Of a stretch of 10,359 bases of DNA, positions 145-7,767 are shown one piece after another (positions within the stretch are counted from its first letter, which is position 1; each line of letters begins with the position of its first letter). Under the pieces are notes generated by a model that was given only the letters and a program-made list of their open reading frames with translations, did no database searches and was not told the origin of the DNA. The position numbers were made by a program, and so were the translations under genes. This DNA is from a virus (Duplodnaviria; Heunggongvirae; Uroviricota; Caudoviricetes). The stretch is taken from the IMG/VR virus record IMGVR_UViG_3300000357_000164; one strand, written 5' to 3'.

Positions 145-603
145 TTATTTCAGGCACTGAGTGCGGATATAGTCCTGTGCCCCTTCCAGTTGCTTGTGCA
201 TCGTCATCAGCCGCTCTCTGAGGGTGAAATAATCCCGTGTAACGGTGTCTGCCAGTTGGGGGCCGGTTGCATTATCCACGCCGGAGGTGGTGGGGGCTTC
301 ACGCACGGAGCCTGGACAGGTGGCGTTGATCCGCAGGCGCTTACGACCAGCGGCAACGTCAGCGCGAAGAGTTTCATTTTCAGCTCTCGCATCGGCTAAT
401 TCCCTCGAGTATTTTGCATCGAGCGCAGCAACATCGCGCTGGCGCACCTGCATATCAGTAATGGTTGCGTTCGCCAGCTTCAGTTCACTGGCTTTGTTAT
501 CGCGCTGCGCTTTGTAGGTAATCGCGTTATCACGGTAATGGTCTGTTGCCATCCACAGCGCACCACAGGCCACCAGCAGAATAACGATAAACGCGGAAAG
601 CAT
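145..603 (-). CDS. Rz: Rz i-spanin (inner-membrane spanin subunit), lambda Rz family
   Basis: Translation [65 protein letters not shown]... closely parallels lambda Rz as recalled (N-terminal TM segment, [34 protein letters not shown]-terminal Cys). ATG at 603 preferred over the in-frame GTG at 618 listed by the ORF track; stop TAA at 145-147. Confidence 0.88.
207..392 (-). CDS. Rz1: Rz1 o-spanin (outer-membrane lipoprotein spanin subunit), embedded in Rz in a different frame
   Basis: Wholly contained in Rz in another frame. Translation [61 protein letters not shown] has a lipobox (LVVSAC), a poly-Pro tract and matches lambda Rz1 as recalled ([14 protein letters not shown]...QTPLNGIISPSE). 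An alternative ATG lies at 377. Confidence 0.85.
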
Positions 604-614
604 TCGGTTTATGT

Positions 615-746
615 TCACCCCAGCAACCCCGACGAAGACAACATCATCCAGGCCATGGAAAGAAAAAGAGCAACCAGCATTAGTGAAAATGAAATGCCGA
701 CAATTACACAGAGGATCTTCGCCAGCGTTATGAGTTTGTCTGACAT
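615..746 (-). CDS. small single-pass membrane peptide (43 aa), function unknown, between endolysin and Rz
   Basis: ATG at 746 preceded by a strong SD (AGGGAGG, 7-nt spacer). Translation [43 protein letters not shown] has one long hydrophobic helix. Stop TGA at 615-617 lies 11 nt upstream of the Rz ATG; same strand and tight spacing as the flanking lysis genes. Confidence 0.55.
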
Positions 747-760
747 GCTTAATCCTCCCT

Positions 761-907
761 TCACGATTTCAACGCAATGACCAGTTTTGCCAGCCCATAC
801 AGCATCGGGGACACAGCAACACCGACCGCCACCCACTTAATGGCAAAAGCCAGTGCTCTGCTGATGTCATCAGTTACAGGCGCTTTCAGTTCAAGGCCAT
901 TTTTCAT
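761..907 (-). CDS. small protein (48 aa) with C-terminal hydrophobic helix, function unknown
   Basis: ATG at 907 preceded by GAGG with a 6-nt spacer. Translation [48 protein letters not shown]. Stop TGA at 761-763 sits directly in front of the SD of the next small ORF. An alternative in-frame ATG at 943 (also preceded by AGGGAG) would give 60 aa. Confidence 0.5.
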
Positions 908-1099
908 AGTCAACCTCAACAGAATTCGTTTACACTTCGCCATGTTCTCCCTTGCCTTACTCAAGGTCAGAAACACAAAACCTCGCTTGGTGCCAACAAA
1001 CGGGGTTTTTACTTTTATTCACTTACGTTTCGCCAGTTCGCAGGATTTCGTGTTATCCGCCCGCGTGGCCATTCCTCATTTTTCAGCAAAATATTCTGC

Positions 1100-1633
1100 T
1101 TATCTGTCGATACCCCAGCACGCCAGCGCGCTCTCCTGGTCACGACGGGATACCTGACCGTAACAGTTGTTTGAACGAATACGGCAGTCTCTGCCACCGT
1201 CCTTAATCCACCAGCGAATCGCTTCGCAGGCACCTTTTCGATCACCAGCATTAATTCGTCTGTAAAACGTCGACGGGAAACACTTACCGGGACCAATGTT
1301 GTACGGACAGAATGACGCGATCCCCGCTTTCTGGGGTTCGGTCAGCGGCACTCTGATGTTTTTCTCCACCCACGCCAGCGCTTTATCACGCTCAATGGCG
1401 TTAACCTGGTCGCATTTTTCCTTCGACAACTTCATGCCCGGAACGACAGGTTTGCCATCCACCATGATGGCACCACGGCAGATGGTCCAGATACCTGCAC
1501 CATCACGGTATGCCGTGGTGTGGTTGCCTTCCTTTTCATCCAGAAACTGGTCGAGAATGTCAGGCGCAGGCGCACCAGCGGCAATCAGCGCCAGAACGGC
1601 AGCCGACAGGCCGTATTTGATTTTGGTGTTCAT
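1100..1633 (-). CDS. R: SAR endolysin (phage lysozyme, T4-lysozyme-like muramidase fold with N-terminal signal-anchor-release domain)
   Basis: 177-aa ORF. N-terminal weakly hydrophobic Ala/Gly-rich segment (LSAAVLALIAAGAPAP) followed by an E-x8-D-x5-T catalytic spacing (EGNHTTAYRDGAGIWT), typical of R21-type SAR endolysins. It closely matches lambdoid/Stx-prophage endolysins as recalled. ATG at 1633, stop TAA at 1100-1102. Confidence 0.92.
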   Translation of the reverse strand: MNTKIKYGLSAAVLALIAAGAPAPDILDQFLDEKEGNHTTAYRDGAGIWTICRGAIMVDGKPVVPGMKLSKEKCDQVNAIERDKALAWVEKNIRVPLTEPQKAGIASFCPYNIGPGKCFPSTFYRRINAGDRKGACEAIRWWIKDGGRDCRIRSNNCYGQVSRRDQESALACWGIDR

Positions 1634-1669: not shown

Positions 1670-2638
1670 CTAAATACGCACTTTAAGATAAGTCAGCCCC
1701 GGATGAAGCCAGTAAGCCGGCACTTTTTTAAAGGGTGGAGTATTAAAATCACGAAGAAGAGCCTCCCGCACAATTGCATCCTTATCAGCACCACTGGCCA
1801 GCGCTTCAATCTCAGCGGCTACCTGAAGATATNNNNNNNNNNNNNNNNNNNNNNNNNNNNNNNNNNNNNNNNNNNNNNNNNNNNNNNNNNNNNNNNNNNN
1901 NNNNNNNNNNNNNNNNNNNNNNNNNNNNNNNNNNNNNNNNNNNNNNNNNNNNNNNNNNNNNNNNNNNNNNNNNNNNNNNNNNNNNNNNNNNNNNNNNNNN
2001 NNNNNNNNNNNNNNNNNNNNNNNNNNNNNNNNTGAGATGGTTATTTTCCCAGCATCACCGGATACAACAAAGGATGGCCGGTTACACTCCCATTCCGGGT
2101 CACTGAAATTATCATTATGAATACTGAAACACTCTGCGAGATTTCTGCTCATCACTTTCCGACAATAATCGTCAAACGCAGCAAACTGCTTTTCATCGCC
2201 AGAAGGCACCAATATCGACCATTTCTTATTCAGCTCAACGACGTAGCTCTCCAGTTTTTCAATACGTGATTCAACATCATCTTTTTCTGACCGCAGTGTT
2301 GACGGCGGCATCTTCAGAGAACAAGTAATTCTTCCCGGTAGCTTTCCTTTGTAGGTTATCAACACATCCTGCGCCTCTAAAATTACGGGGCGCTTTTCCG
2401 GCAACGGTTCGTTCCATTCACATAACCCGGCAGCAACATCCATGAAAAACTGCTTCGCCTGCTTTTTCGCCTCAGCTTCGTAAAACTCCAGCGTGGCACC
2501 TTCAGTACGGTCAAGACTAATCGCCACATCTGGCAACAACAGCGACGCTTGCCCGTCACCTTCCGACTTCACAGTAACAGTAACCTTATCCCCGTAATTA
2601 TTTATCCCCTTAACAACCAGTTCATATTTTTTATTCAT
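1670..2638 (-). CDS. hypothetical protein (~322 aa) inserted between holin and endolysin; no recognisable family from sequence alone
   Basis: Long minus-strand ORF starting at ATG 2638 (the track starts at the in-frame GTG 2641). An SD (GGGGAGAG) lies inside the 3' end of the holin gene, and the holin stop TAA (2643-2645) is 4 nt from this ATG. Soluble-looking protein with a coiled-coil-like stretch (RSEKDDVESRIEKLESYVVELNKKW). The interior 1833-2032 is masked (200 N), so continuity of the N-terminal 200 aa with the C-terminal 54 aa is unproven. Stop TAG at 1670-1672, 36 nt before the endolysin ATG. Confidence 0.6.
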   Translation of the reverse strand: MNKKYELVVKGINNYGDKVTVTVKSEGDGQASLLLPDVAISLDRTEGATLEFYEAEAKKQAKQFFMDVAAGLCEWNEPLPEKRPVILEAQDVLITYKGKLPGRITCSLKMPPSTLRSEKDDVESRIEKLESYVVELNKKWSILVPSGDEKQFAAFDDYCRKVMSRNLAECFSIHNDNFSDPEWECNRPSFVVSGDAGKITISXXXXXXXXXXXXXXXXXXXXXXXXXXXXXXXXXXXXXXXXXXXXXXXXXXXXXXXXXXXXXXXXXXXYLQVAAEIEALASGADKDAIVREALLRDFNTPPFKKVPAYWLHPGLTYLKVRI

Positions 2639-2642
2639 CACT

Positions 2643-2858
2643 TTACTCTCCCCGCGCCGCCTTACGCCGGTCCTCTTTGATTTTGAAATACAGGTTAGTC
2701 AGGTACGTCAGCAGCCCAAACAGCAGACTCCCCAGCACGCCTATTGCCGCCCACTGAGACGGGGAAACCCTGTCCAGCAACTGCAGGAACCAGTAGCCCG
2801 TTCCCACCGCTGACGTGGTGTATGACACACCTGTTGTGATTTTTTCCATCTGGTACAT
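2643..2858 (-). CDS. S: pinholin, S21-family class II holin with dual-start motif (Met1/Met4)
   Basis: 71-aa product [71 protein letters not shown]; two TMDs and a charged C-terminus. Strong resemblance to phage 21 S21 as recalled (...[51 protein letters not shown]). SD GGGAG upstream of ATG 2858. Pairs functionally with the SAR endolysin downstream. Confidence 0.9.
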
Positions 2859-3180: not shown

Positions 3181-3315
3181 GGGATTTTCTCGTTGAAAGG
3201 TGTTGTCAAGAAAGTGACTACGGAATNNNNNNNNNNNNNNNNNNNNNNNNNNNNNNNNNNNNNNNNNNNNNNNNNNNNNNNNNNNNNNNNNNNNNNNNNN
3301 NNNNNNNNNNNNNNN

Positions 3316-3479
3316 TCGGGTTTGCTTCCGGCTGACTGACTGGCGCTGATTCTCTCAGCGGCCCTTTTATCAATCTGCCTGCGCCAGAAATCGCGCACTG
3401 CCCTGTACCCACCCGAAAGAAGATACATAACACAGACTGCCATACAGAAGTACAGCATTACCTGATGAATAAATGTCAT
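3316..3479 (-). CDS. small membrane protein, 3' end lost in masked block (partial)
   Basis: ATG at 3479. N-terminus MTFIHQVMLYFCMAVCVMYLLSGGYRAVRDFWRRQIDKRAAERISASQSAGSKP has one TM helix followed by a basic segment. The ORF runs into the N block 3227-3315, so the true stop is unknown; the in-frame continuation after the block overlaps the acidic ORF and is probably not real. Confidence 0.4.
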
Positions 3480-3577
3480 AATTTCTTACCGTTATGGTTG
3501 ACAATGAGAACTGTTTTCATTTAGAAATGATTGATGTCGAAAGCATCTTTTCTTTACATTCTCCATTGGGATTACCT

Positions 3578-3615
3578 CCGCCAGCTTCCATTCCTGCCGC
3601 TGGCGGCTTTTTTTA
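3578..3615 (+). terminator. intrinsic terminator-like hairpin oriented for plus-strand transcription
   Basis: Perfect 8-bp stem CCGCCAGC (3578-3585) / GCTGGCGG (3599-3606) with a 13-nt loop, followed on the plus strand by CTTTTTTTA. On the minus strand the hairpin is preceded, not followed, by the A/T run, so it is unidirectional (plus). It sits immediately 3' of the nanS-p stop. Confidence 0.5.
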
Positions 3616-5745
3616 TCATGCCGCGATGTCCGCGTTGTTCACTTCCACCTTCACACTGTCAATCAGCAGCGTATATGTCGCCGCCTTTGATATGCCTGTC
3701 AGTTGCAGTTTGTCCGCCGCCCCTGATGCCGGAGATTTCACCAGTGTGAACGGCGTCCCCCGTTTCTCATCCAGTACCGGCGTCACCTGAATGCTGTTGT
3801 TTCCGGCAAACTCAAAAGCCAGTGTGTGCCATCCGTTATCAAAGACCCCGAACGTTTCCAGCTTCGCATTCGGCTTCTTGTGGTGCATCGCGTTCAGGTT
3901 CGTCGCATCCGTCTGCAGAAAGAAGGACATCAGCATGTCGTTGCCTTCCTCTGCCAGCGTCACTCCCTCNNNNNNNNNNNNNNNNNNNNNNNNNNNNNNN
4001 NNNNNNNNNNNNNNNNNNNNNNNNNNNNNNNNNNNNNNNNNNNNNNNNNNNNNNNNNNNNNNAACTGCCAGTAAATGCCCAGGGCAAACTGATTCGGCAC
4101 CAGTGAACCCGGCAACTTAAACCGTACGCTCACACGTCCCCCCTTCTTCAGTAACTCCACTCCCTGTCCGGCTGCATCATGCTCCAGAAACCAGATGTGG
4201 TTTTCCGGTTTATTCAGTTGCAGGGCCTTACCTCCCGTAGCCCCCGCATCACTGACCACCGCTTCAGCAATGTTTTTGTTAACATTGTCTCCGCTCGCCG
4301 GTTTGTGATAATAGCGCCAGCCCTGTGATGCCAGGTCTTCGCCGGACGCCAGCAGACTCATCAGGGTTCGGTTACTGACCGGGGCTTCCGGCTCTCTCTC
4401 CGTACCTTCACCGGAAGGTCCGGTGGGCTTCACCGTATCAGGCTGTTTTCCGGTAATGAATTCAGCGTTTCTCCCGGCATGCACAAGAATCGCCGTTGCC
4501 AGACGGTCGGAAATAATCCCACGACGTGCCCATGATCCAAAATGCGTTTTACGGTCAGCCGTCGTCCAGGTTTTGGCGTCCGTTCGACCACCGGCTCCGT
4601 AATACCCAATATCCGCAACATCCGGATCTTCTGACGGCTCGTTGGTACCCACATTTCGCCCGTTTTCATCCGTCATAAACGGCACAAAGAAGNNNNNNNN
4701 NNNNNNNNNNNNNNNNNNNNNNNNNNNNNNNNNNNNNNNNNNNNNNNNNNNNNNNNNNNNNNNNNNNNNNNNNNNNNNNNNNNNNNNNNNNTGCGGATTT
4801 CGTCTTGTATGCACCATACACCGCATCGTATTGCGAAGAATAAGTCTGCTTCCAGTAGTAGGTCGTGTCGCCACAAATCCAGGGAACCGATGACGGAGAG
4901 CCCCCGAGACACTGACCTCCGAATTCCGACAGGTCAGAACGATATTTTTCCACCATGGAATCAAACAGCCCCGGCTGGGTGGCGTATGCACCCTGTTTCA
5001 AATCAAACTCGCCCTGCATCCAGACCACTGCAAGCAGAATATTTTTAGGGTTGGCCTTCAGTGCGGCCTGAGTACGGGTAAGCAGGTCCTTGTACAGTGG
5101 CTTATCTACACCCCAGCGTGCCGAGGTCTCGCTTGCGCCGGTGGATTCGCTGAAGGTACCTTCATCGCCCGCCAAAAATGCAGAACCACCACGGCAGCAC
5201 GGAACCAGAAGAATACCGGCATTCGCCGGAATAAACGGCAACAATTTCTTCGCGATATGTAATCCCTGCCCCACGCATCCATACTGAGCTGCACTGGCTT
5301 TCGGGTGTGAAAACTTACTCAAATCCTGAACATCATGCAGGCAGTGGTCCGCAGGAATAATGTCATTGTAGTTACAGAACGCACCACCCGGCGTGACAGT
5401 GCTGCGACGCGCCAGCTGTTTAATACGCGGGTCCGGACGGTCATATGTCTCCGGCAGCGGAAGCCCTTCACCATACGCCATACCGTTTGACTGCCCGGCC
5501 AGGGCAACAACAAAGTAATACTCCGGGTTGCTGGTGGTGCTGATAACTGCGCCTTCTCCATCCGACGGCTTCACCACCACAGGTGTGGTGACATCACCTT
5601 CCGCCGCAATGGCCTGCATCAGGGTATAAGGCGTGATGGCCACCGGACTGCCAAATGGCTGCCACCCCTCCTTCAGTTTTTGTGTCAGTCGTTTCGCAAG
5701 GTCTGACGGCGATGCCGCCCTGACAACATCATAGTGTTTAAATGC
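3616..5745 (-). CDS. nanS-p: NanS-p-type phage sialate 9-O-acetylesterase (SASA/DUF303 esterase domain with C-terminal lectin-like region), interrupted by masked blocks
   Basis: Large minus-strand coding region with the SASA esterase GQSN motif (VALAGQSNGMAYGEG) and surrounding similarity to prophage NanS-p/YjhS-like esterases as recalled. The N-terminal part (AFKHYDVVRAASPSDLAKRLTQKLKEGWQPFGSPVA) resembles the DUF1737 region. The start lies inside N block 5746-5849. The coding frame differs on each side of N blocks 4693-4791 and 3970-4062 (three track ORFs: 4666..5964, 3960..4991, 3616..3963). Stop TGA at 3616-3618. Confidence 0.8.
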
Positions 5746-6017
5746 NNNNNNNNNNNNNNNNNNNNNNNNNNNNNNNNNNNNNNNNNNNNNNNNNNNNNNN
5801 NNNNNNNNNNNNNNNNNNNNNNNNNNNNNNNNNNNNNNNNNNNNNNNNNATTCTTTAAAATACCTGACATGTAATACAGAAAAAACACAAAACCATACCT
5901 TAAATAAAAACCTCATCATCAAGCAGATATGCATGGATAAACTACAAGACGAGATATAAACCACCCTGCATTTAAATAAACAATAAACAACATCAGAAAA
6001 ATAATTCTGCTCTATGG

Positions 6018-7517: not shown

Positions 7518-7591
7518 CGCGCTGTACTGGATTCGAACCAGTGACCGATTGCTTAGAAGGCAATTGCTCTGTCCGGCTGAGCTAACAACGC
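7518..7591 (-). tRNA. tRNA-Arg (anticodon UCU), phage-borne; 3' CCA not encoded
   Basis: Minus-strand sequence GCGTTGTTAGCTCAGCCGGACAGAGCAATTGCCTTCTAAGCAATCGGTCACTGGTTCGAATCCAGTACAGCGCG folds as a cloverleaf: 7-bp acceptor stem with one G-U, D arm GCTC/GAGC, anticodon loop CTTCTAA, T arm with GGTTCGAATCC. It resembles E. coli argU-type tRNA. The discriminator is followed by CTA rather than CCA. Confidence 0.85.
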
Positions 7592-7691: not shown

Positions 7692-7767
7692 TGGTGGCCC
7701 TTGCTGGATTTGAACCAGCGACCTGGCGATTATGAGTCGCTCGCTCTCACCACTGAGCTAAAGGGCC
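7692..7767 (-). tRNA. tRNA-Ile2-like (anticodon CAU, ileX/ileZ-type; could formally be Met)
   Basis: Minus-strand sequence GGCCCTTTAGCTCAGTGGTGAGAGCGAGCGACTCATAATCGCCAGGTCGCTGGTTCAAATCCAGCAAGGGCCACCA (76 nt, CCA encoded) is near-identical in architecture to E. coli ileX tRNA as recalled. Anticodon loop CTCATAA. Confidence 0.88.

Follow-up and report, generated by a model that had tools for sequence, protein, structure and literature searches.

Holins have at least one transmembrane (TM) domain together with a hydrophilic, highly charged C-terminal cytoplasmic tail, and those of phage lambda (S107/S105) and phage 21 (S71/S68) come from dual-start genes. In phage P1, LydC and LydD are additional holins, and several small holin-like proteins can co-tune lysis (PMC9025707). 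The releasin gp25 of phage Mu (DUF2730) is a membrane-tethered protein, encoded near the lysis genes, which controls the release of the signal-anchor-release (SAR) endolysin (PMC9239132). Lcc6 (SO_4795) of LambdaSo in Shewanella, a protein of 65 amino acids (aa) with a single TM and, until then, no known function, is needed at the holin level for lysis by pinholin, SAR endolysin and Rz/Rz1; it has an N-terminal TM (aa 5-22) and a cytoplasmic tail of ~43 aa, and its gene lies near int/xis, far from the lysis genes (10.1101/2024.01.23.576932). Here we analyzed two small open reading frames (ORFs), A and B, located between the endolysin gene R and the i-spanin gene Rz in a 10,359-nucleotide (nt) stretch of Caudoviricetes DNA from an E. 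coli prophage (IMG/VR record IMGVR_UViG_3300000357_000164; this whole stretch is called the window). A sequence-only reading of the window had placed ORFs of 48 and 43 aa here, each with its own Shine-Dalgarno (SD) sequence and ATG, and the coordinates, the SDs and the Pfam assignments of the neighboring genes agree with this (Table 1); the spacing of 11-14 nt that it reported is also borne out, with 14 nt measured between A and B and 11 nt between B and the Rz ATG (603). We find that A and B are real, separately initiated protein-coding genes under selection. Our preferred reading of their function, to which we give slightly less than an even chance, is that they may be late-expressed accessory inner-membrane micro-proteins which modulate a membrane step of lysis; an accessory role in lysis was one of the possibilities raised by the sequence-only reading.

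Selection was examined in two samples whose choice did not depend on the ORFs themselves, 120 IMG/VR loci for which the final seven codons of R served as the anchor and 60 loci anchored on Salmonella-type A (individual loci are given below by L numbers). A first IMG/VR retrieval by alignment to B was left out as biased (77 loci with B identical to that of the window and three at 98%). In the R-anchored sample, A was intact in 23 of 25 loci and B in 50 of 51. The 48-codon core of A has a dN/dS of 0.17-0.20 (Nei-Gojobori, unique alleles), the lowest of the six frames, and its variable sites are distributed 15/3/29 over the three codon positions. For B, dN/dS is 0.33-0.41 as compared with 0.84-1.4 in the other two sense frames. 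The length of B is steady at 43-44 codons over 31 DNA variants, and an open frame with an uncharged TM core has been kept at a divergence of about 30% of the DNA (37-40 of 126 nt). When substitutions were simulated at random at this divergence, ~63% of the sequences gained a stop codon and 0.4-1% kept both an open frame and an uncharged 23-residue core (p about 0.005-0.01). Two antisense ORFs, 538-780 and 777-1157 on the plus strand, were considered as real genes and rejected as mirror-frame by-products, as such frames stay open opposite the NUN-rich codons of TM segments. The first is open in 29 of 30 variants and the second in 25 of 25, and neither has a conserved start; over A the antisense dN/dS is clearly worse, while the mirror frame of B scores 0.36-0.44 and shares the wobble positions of B.

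Translation of B has support from a published data set. XECs191 of enterohemorrhagic Escherichia coli (EHEC) Sakai, MMGWLMISDKLITLVKSLCVLVGISFLVMLVAIFFSTAWRVLTLSGLVG, is a direct homolog of B; it belongs to the Stx-phage (Shiga toxin phage) subtype and carries an N-terminal extension of 5-6 residues which is absent from B of the window. In LB, XECs191 gave an RNA RPKM (reads per kilobase per million) of 30.0, a RIBO RPKM of 12.6, a ribosome coverage value (RCV) of 0.43 and a coverage of 0.55 (PMC5597208), and it was classed as a 'real' translated intergenic gene with a predicted inner-membrane product with one TM (Hucker et al. 2017, PMC5597208). Among the observations that, according to the sequence-only reading, would speak against it are frames not preserved in close relatives and no signal in ribosome profiling. 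The frames are preserved, with coding-type substitutions, and the homolog of B has a RIBOseq signal. A purine-rich SD is found 6-9 nt 5' of the B ATG behind the A and A' types surveyed (A' being a second, shorter type of ORF described below), and in phage P27, where B follows the antirepressor gene ant, a ribosome-binding site is annotated before B.

The start of A is less simple than the first description, which gave A as a protein of 48 aa. The 48-aa ORF is present, but a 60-aa form initiated at the ATG at 943 is possible, or both forms, and the longer one is the form recorded by PGAP/RefSeq (183 nt; WP_001446668.1). The 12-codon extension has a pN/pS of about 1. An ATG or GTG with an SD is nevertheless kept at codon 943 even where the 5' DNA differs, and the GAGG of the internal ATG is unchanged across 60+ loci. 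A homolog of A at 48% identity retains RKYKRFFLRLSI, although its DNA has changed synonymously and has gained 3 nt in frame, and in homologs at 50% identity or less both Met1 with the extension and the internal Met are retained. In one of these distant relatives (L271) the internal SD survives as GGAGG even though the codons overlapping it now read V-E-V in place of L-R-L, and an AGGAG precedes the upstream start. Since both start codons and their SDs are kept in relatives, both starts, giving 60 and 48 aa, are probably used.

The polar N-terminus and hydrophobic C-terminus first described for A agree with its hydropathy, the C-terminal helix being only weakly hydrophobic (Kyte-Doolittle (KD) score 1.88). 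The 60-aa form consists of a short basic N-terminal helix, a linker and a 35-residue weakly hydrophobic helix; the AlphaFold model contains these two helices only (pLDDT 74), with the AlphaFold2 helix at residues 25-59, and the protein ends KS, two residues past it. K36-W37, G41, S45 and Y49-G50 are invariant. B (WP_001280932.1 in RefSeq) is, as first proposed, essentially one TM helix, with a strongly hydrophobic segment (KD 2.89), a slightly basic N-terminus and an uncharged C-terminus (...SSSGLLG). In a cleaner alignment V16, S19 and F20 of its core are invariant and G17 nearly so. A small-residue helix face such as that of B is typical of helix-helix packing. By the positive-inside rule, both proteins are predicted to have their N-termini inside.

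We searched for relatives with known functions. A falls into phrog_1115/4493/3246 (E=3.7e-42, residues 1-60) and B into phrog_4906 (E=2.1e-23, residues 1-43); these families have hundreds of members and their function is unassigned in PHROGs. At E<=1, no Pfam family, whether of holins, of toxins or DUF2730, matched A or B, apart from DUF3930 for B, which at E=0.08 and 13 bits stayed below its cut-off of 25 bits. Neither protein had a match in NCBIfam or an informative match in a sequence search of the PDB, and PADLOC returned no matches for A, B or three sibling tiny ORFs. Searching the literature by RefSeq protein id and by peptide string gave no result in main texts, and a search for genes 'between R and Rz' found no relevant paper. 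What was already on record for A and B was their listing as hypothetical proteins and the one RIBOseq match of the B homolog.

Against the systems described above, A and B show likenesses and clear differences. The charged C-terminal tail of holins is wanting in both, each has one TM only, and the cassette of the window already has its own dual-start pinholin. A has two conserved in-frame starts, a possible parallel to the dual starts of the lambda and phage 21 holin genes, and its longer form would add basic residues as in holin/antiholin pairs; the pN/pS of the extension is, however, about 1, and in the distant homolog of L271 the extension is acidic. LydC and LydD are, like A and B, small membrane proteins of a lysis operon. 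Mu gp25 combines an N-terminal TM with a cytoplasmic domain, whereas A and B are much smaller, without a soluble domain and without DUF2730; further, gp25 serves SAR endolysins while A and B are also found with soluble, non-SAR endolysins. Compared by architecture only, Lcc6 has the reverse layout to A, which has a polar N-terminus and a C-terminal helix, and B is a bare TM. Lcc6, gp25 and LydC/LydD are functionally the closest precedents for small accessory membrane proteins that are needed for lysis or modulate it, but A and B differ from all of them in architecture and share none of their defining features testable here. Spanins need a lipobox or a bridging periplasmic domain, whereas A and B are without a lipobox and have ~2-15 extramembrane residues at the C-terminus. 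A spanin-like bridge formed by A and B with a 60-aa lipoprotein, which ends some cassettes, was considered and rejected, the extramembrane parts being, to judge from their lengths, far too short.

A and B are widespread. In 394 complete E. coli genomes the 561-nt region that holds them is present at 99% identity or more; it is covered to at least 80% in 989 of 5,426 and is matched at least partly in 2,135, and its annotation in those genomes is always two hypothetical proteins. The exact A and B peptides occur on at least 1,000 public contigs, labelled only 'hypothetical' or 'Transmembrane protein'. A was found in 14 phage records only. B was found in 276, mostly those of Stx-converting phages, always at full length and mostly unannotated; there it sits between ant and Rz in copies 67-74% identical. 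The sequence-only reading had recognized neither peptide from Stx-phage cassettes, which is wrong for B. The B homolog in the record of E. coli PA7 (P0295) is misnamed 'Rz' in GenBank. A scan of one genome per species yielded no A and a single B match, on a 328-bp contig labelled Xanthomonas pisi (L086), which is probably contamination.

The interval between R and Rz is a mosaic slot in which A and B are two of several alternatives. In the R-anchored sample, the slot holds a single 32-aa TM ORF (373-nt type, 31 loci), a diverged A ending IRWW (410-nt type), A followed by a third ORF called C, or A followed by B as in the window (22 loci). Four tandem tiny TM ORFs, A' (31 aa), B, an A-fragment (38 aa) and C (28 aa), are found in 20 loci. 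This array (L179, 717-nt type; also L004 and L005) spans ~500 nt and is followed by Rz; the GTG start of the A-fragment lies 2 nt past the B stop, and C ends IRWW. The remaining types are ant followed by B, which is the Stx-phage type, and a 231-aa ORF followed by A' and B, with or without the A-fragment. Among R177-type cassettes, 85 of 89 have one or more tiny hydrophobic ORFs. The last of them stops between -11 and +11 nt from the Rz ATG in 80 of the 85, with a gap of 1 nt in 54. B occurs without A (behind ant or A') and A without B (directly before Rz in L209, or with C), so the two are not an obligate pair.

Nor is the pair tied to one kind of lysis system. At least 33 loci have A and B together after the genes of a phrog_217 holin and a soluble endolysin of the GH108 type, and in these loci the 60-aa lipoprotein replaces Rz/Rz1 downstream. 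A-type ORFs are also found behind an M15 peptidase endolysin, in one case followed by B (L266), or behind an R21-like SAR lysozyme. In records labelled Citrobacter and Cronobacter, B comes after Phage_holin_8, Phage_holin_3_7 and Glyco_hydro_108, and in the Citrobacter locus a called 60-aa ORF, presumably A, precedes it; in a Salmonella record, B overlaps the start of Rz and follows Phage_holin_2_3 and Phage_lysozyme. Wherever B was examined, in loci of E. coli, Salmonella, Citrobacter and Cronobacter, it lies directly 5' of Rz or of the lipoprotein gene whatever the holin and endolysin, and among the loci seen, in these four genera, none had B outside a lysis cassette. The first reading had set A and B beside a pinholin/SAR-endolysin system, and this neighborhood was found in the window, but the link is not specific, the same pair occurring with GH108 endolysins and unrelated holins. 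Given this coexistence with unrelated holins and endolysins, any target of A and B must be generic; the bilayer or proton-motive force, a host membrane protein, and a downstream spanin-type product are candidates.

The lipoprotein (MSRKHWTHR...LVGC) is phrog_7528 and has no Pfam match. Six of the cassettes which it ends (L213, L233, L253, L254, L275 and L277) combine one or two holins with an endolysin, GH108 or M15, and with A, either alone or together with B, and no recognizable i-spanin or u-spanin was found in them; the holins of L275 and L277 are Phage_holin_8 and Phage_holin_3_7. In L274 and L275 (1-859), genes resembling those of the A and B subunits of heat-labile enterotoxin type II (LT-II; PF01375, PF06453) lie directly 5' of the holins, a place beside an A/B-containing cassette which parallels that of stx in Stx phages.

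The features of the window are collected in Table 1. A and B are co-oriented and tightly packed with S, R, Rz and Rz1. The N-terminal segment of R is of weak hydrophobicity (KD 1.74) and rich in Gly and Ala (47% G/A/S/T), a composition as expected of a SAR endolysin, which R is predicted to be. A run of N (about 1834-2030) masks part of the 323-aa ORF between the holin and R, and further N runs lie within 3200-5900. The Rz start of relatives, ATGAACCG..., reads ATA in the window, so Rz must start at GTG 618 or ATG 603; the former overlaps the TGA of B as GTGA, and the latter is preceded only by a distant SD-like GGGGTGA. Elsewhere in the window, two tRNA genes (7518-7591 and 7695-7767, minus strand; RF00005, 68 and 72.5 bits), upstream of the late region, were the only Rfam matches, with no antisense RNA family. 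A 432-aa ORF (4666-5964, minus strand) is a candidate NanS-p-type esterase gene such as those of Stx-like prophages.

Table 1. Features of the lysis cassette and of the interval holding A and B in the window
Feature	Position	Strand	Basis or detail
Holin S, phage-21 type (pinholin family)	2643-2858	-	PF04971 (Bacteriophage P21 holin S), E=7e-33; dual-start MYQM
323-aa ORF, N-terminal part DUF1327	1670-2641	-	PF07041, E=5.8e-41; between holin and R
R, 177-aa lysozyme, predicted SAR endolysin	1100-1633	-	PF00959 (Phage_lysozyme)
Terminator-like hairpin, AAAACCCCG..CGAGGUUUU then U-run	971-1010	-	~30 nt 5' of A
AGGGAG, SD-like, 3 nt 5' of upstream A ATG (943)	947-952	-	Sequence
In-frame 12-codon N-terminal extension of A, MAKCKRILLRLT	908-943	-	ATG 943-941
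GAGG, SD of internal A ATG (907), 6 nt 5'	914-917	-	Sequence
ORF A, 48-aa form	761-907	-	ATG 907-905, stop TGA 763-761
GGGAGGA, SD of B	753-759	-	Sequence
ORF B, 43 aa	615-746	-	ATG 746-744, stop TGA 617-615
Rz (i-spanin)	145-603/618	-	Pfam Phage_lysis, PF03245; start GTG 618 or ATG 603
Rz1, embedded in Rz	207-392	-	Pfam Rz1, PF06085

In our preferred reading, A and B belong to a mosaic accessory slot of Enterobacteriaceae lambdoid cassettes, which extends from the endolysin gene to Rz/Rz1 or the 60-aa lipoprotein gene. Their transcription may be confined to the late lysis operon, with Q as the antiterminator that lets polymerase pass the hairpin 3' of R, and they would then be made together with S, R and Rz/Rz1, as the biology of the lambda late operon suggests. 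Translation would start from their own SDs and, where the last tiny ORF abuts Rz, would probably be coupled to that of Rz. The proteins are expected to insert into the cytoplasmic membrane with their N-termini inside and might make helix-helix contacts, B through V16/S19/F20 and the near-invariant G17, and A through G41xxxS45 and K36-W37. There they would tune the membrane step of lysis, either the triggering and timing of the holin or the deployment of the spanin, rather than act as essential effectors. We infer the late expression, the topology and any effect on lysis, whereas the existence, selection, anatomy, distribution and conserved position of the genes and the translation of a B homolog are shown. 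The position of B, locked to the start of the spanin or lipoprotein gene across genera, supports the linkage to lysis, as do the tiny ORFs that stop close to the Rz ATG in most R177-type cassettes, the tight co-oriented packing with S, R, Rz and Rz1 and the lack of a promoter-like site on this strand between R and Rz.

Several observations weigh against a role in lysis. The independence from holin and endolysin type means that no specific partner can be named. The slot also holds cargo unrelated to lysis, namely the antirepressor gene ant and the 231-aa ORF. In some relatives R abuts Rz directly, as in L115 and in Qin of E. coli K-12, where rrrQ and rzpQ overlap and no curated small protein is listed at the corresponding place; the basic cassette can therefore do without the peptides. 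For B, the lowering of dN/dS below 1 is only moderate, and the mirror antisense frame reaches a similar value. The RIBOseq signal of XECs191 is weak and comes from uninduced cultures. Finally, distant relatives of A are found at late-operon sites unrelated to lysis, a pattern that suits a mobile moron better than a factor dedicated to lysis. When 1.84 billion representative proteins were searched with a profile of A, 22 clusters only were obtained. Of the distant members that could be placed, one lies between tail chaperone and tape-measure genes (L268), two come after tail-fiber or DUF4376 genes where a prophage ends (L270, L271), one comes after tail-fiber assembly genes (L273), and one (L272) is part of an array of 4-5 tiny TM ORFs behind the major capsid gene.

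The strongest alternative, though we regard it as unlikely, is that A, and perhaps B, are moron cargo, mobile membrane-protein modules that happen to have landed in a permissive part of the late operon and have a role outside lysis, such as superinfection exclusion through a block to DNA entry at the inner membrane or the modulation of a host membrane protein. Besides the capsid, tail-fiber and tail-chaperone sites, where relatives of A carry the same 5' hairpin, this idea draws on the sharing of the R-Rz slot with ant and other unrelated genes and on the mosaic of presence and absence, the slot being full in some relatives and empty in others. Insertion between genes that are adjacent in relatives, one mark of a moron, is seen here, in comparison with the rrrQ/rzpQ overlap of Qin and with L115. 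The hairpin itself, AAAACCCCG-N13-CGGGGUUUU with a U-run, lies ~25-50 nt 5' of the A-family ORF in the contexts whose DNA was read, which were the window and its R-anchored relatives, the GH108-type loci, L271 (2895-2965 and 3225-3300) and L273 (2900-2985). In L271 it is double and stands on both sides of the ORF, like a repeat bounding a mobile module. In the window it is weakened by a G-to-A change (-12 kcal/mol as compared with -21 in relatives), and the Ant-type and 231-aa-ORF intervals have a non-homologous hairpin at the same place, that of the Ant type being GGCACCguaaUGGUGCC followed by a U-run.

A second mark of a moron, an own promoter 5' and a terminator 3', was not found. A consensus scan of both strands around the ORFs (~600-1100) revealed no promoter-like site, weak promoters being possible, and the terminator-like hairpin lies upstream of A rather than downstream, with none between B and Rz. 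The GC content of the A/B region is not distinct from that of its flanks, and the lack of PADLOC matches also argues against such cargo, as does the restriction of B to lysis cassettes, in four genera, where it abuts the start of the spanin or lipoprotein gene.

An improbable alternative is that the tiny ORFs serve as leaders, the hairpin uncoupling Rz from R and the ORFs bringing ribosomes to the Rz/Rz1 start, with peptides of little function. The spacing invites this idea, since the stop of the last tiny ORF and the Rz ATG are 1 nt (54 loci), 7 nt or 11 nt apart, the B stop of the window overlaps the possible GTG of Rz, and R and Rz overlap directly where the small ORF is missing. Many tiny ORFs of different families also end in R-W-W-stop (CGT TGG TGG TGA) with the next ATG 1 nt later (L205, L180, L206, L269, L272 and others; in the window, 603-618 corresponds to this place), and this recurrent motif doubles as an SD and a stop, which suggests translational coupling. 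But leaders of this kind would not account for the purifying selection on the A peptide, the hydrophobic TM character that B has kept or the invariant residues within the helices. Up to four tandem ORFs are more than coupling alone needs, and the families persist in different genera and settings, some of which have no spanin gene downstream.

That A and B form a membrane-active toxin pair, or a type-I-toxin-like element carried as cargo, as the sequence-only reading had also suggested, now appears very improbable. B is similar to the type I toxins (Hok, Ldr, TisB, Ibs/Sib and ZorO) in size and in its single hydrophobic helix. However, A and B occur independently of each other, and neither an antisense RNA family, a toxin family nor a promoter-like site on either strand was found for them, which argues against a toxin pair, and both genes are embedded in the late operon and co-oriented with it. 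Least probable of all is that A and B are chance ORFs in a recombination-prone spacer, conserved as DNA only. The strong mosaicism of the region, the open mirror antisense frames and the lack of a strong third-position bias in the variable sites of B (28/18/30 by codon position) favor this, but the frame-specific dN/dS, the significant simulation, the SDs and starts kept across contexts, the steady length of B, the RIBOseq signal of its homolog and the size of the PHROG families all speak for genes.

What is new here is the breadth of B in Stx phages, the mosaic slot of one to four ORFs, the independence from holin and endolysin type, and the moron-like A family with its hairpin. Going further than a role for A and B alone, we also hypothesize, as a bolder and rather doubtful proposal, that the array of one to four single-pass micro-proteins, drawn from five or more families (A, A'/373-type, B, C 'IRWW', and D/E), may be a new class of lysis component, whose bare TM helices would bind the helices of the i-spanin, the holin or the SAR domain and so set the timing of lysis and of phage and toxin release. 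This class would be rapidly shuffled and would cover Enterobacteriaceae lambdoid prophages, including most Stx phages and the prophages carrying LT-II.

The locus offers a compact case of bare-TM-helix proteins evolving by module shuffling. It also exposes an annotation gap, B being missing from most Stx-phage records and labelled 'Rz' in one. Should A and B have no lysis phenotype, they would reduce to ordinary small hypothetical prophage genes. If instead these micro-proteins modulate lysis, the canonical holin/endolysin/spanin scheme may leave out components of lambdoid lysis in a very common cassette. Toxin release by Stx and LT-II phages depends on phage-mediated lysis, and an unannotated regulator of lysis timing, if real, would matter for pathogenesis and for antibiotic-induced toxin release.

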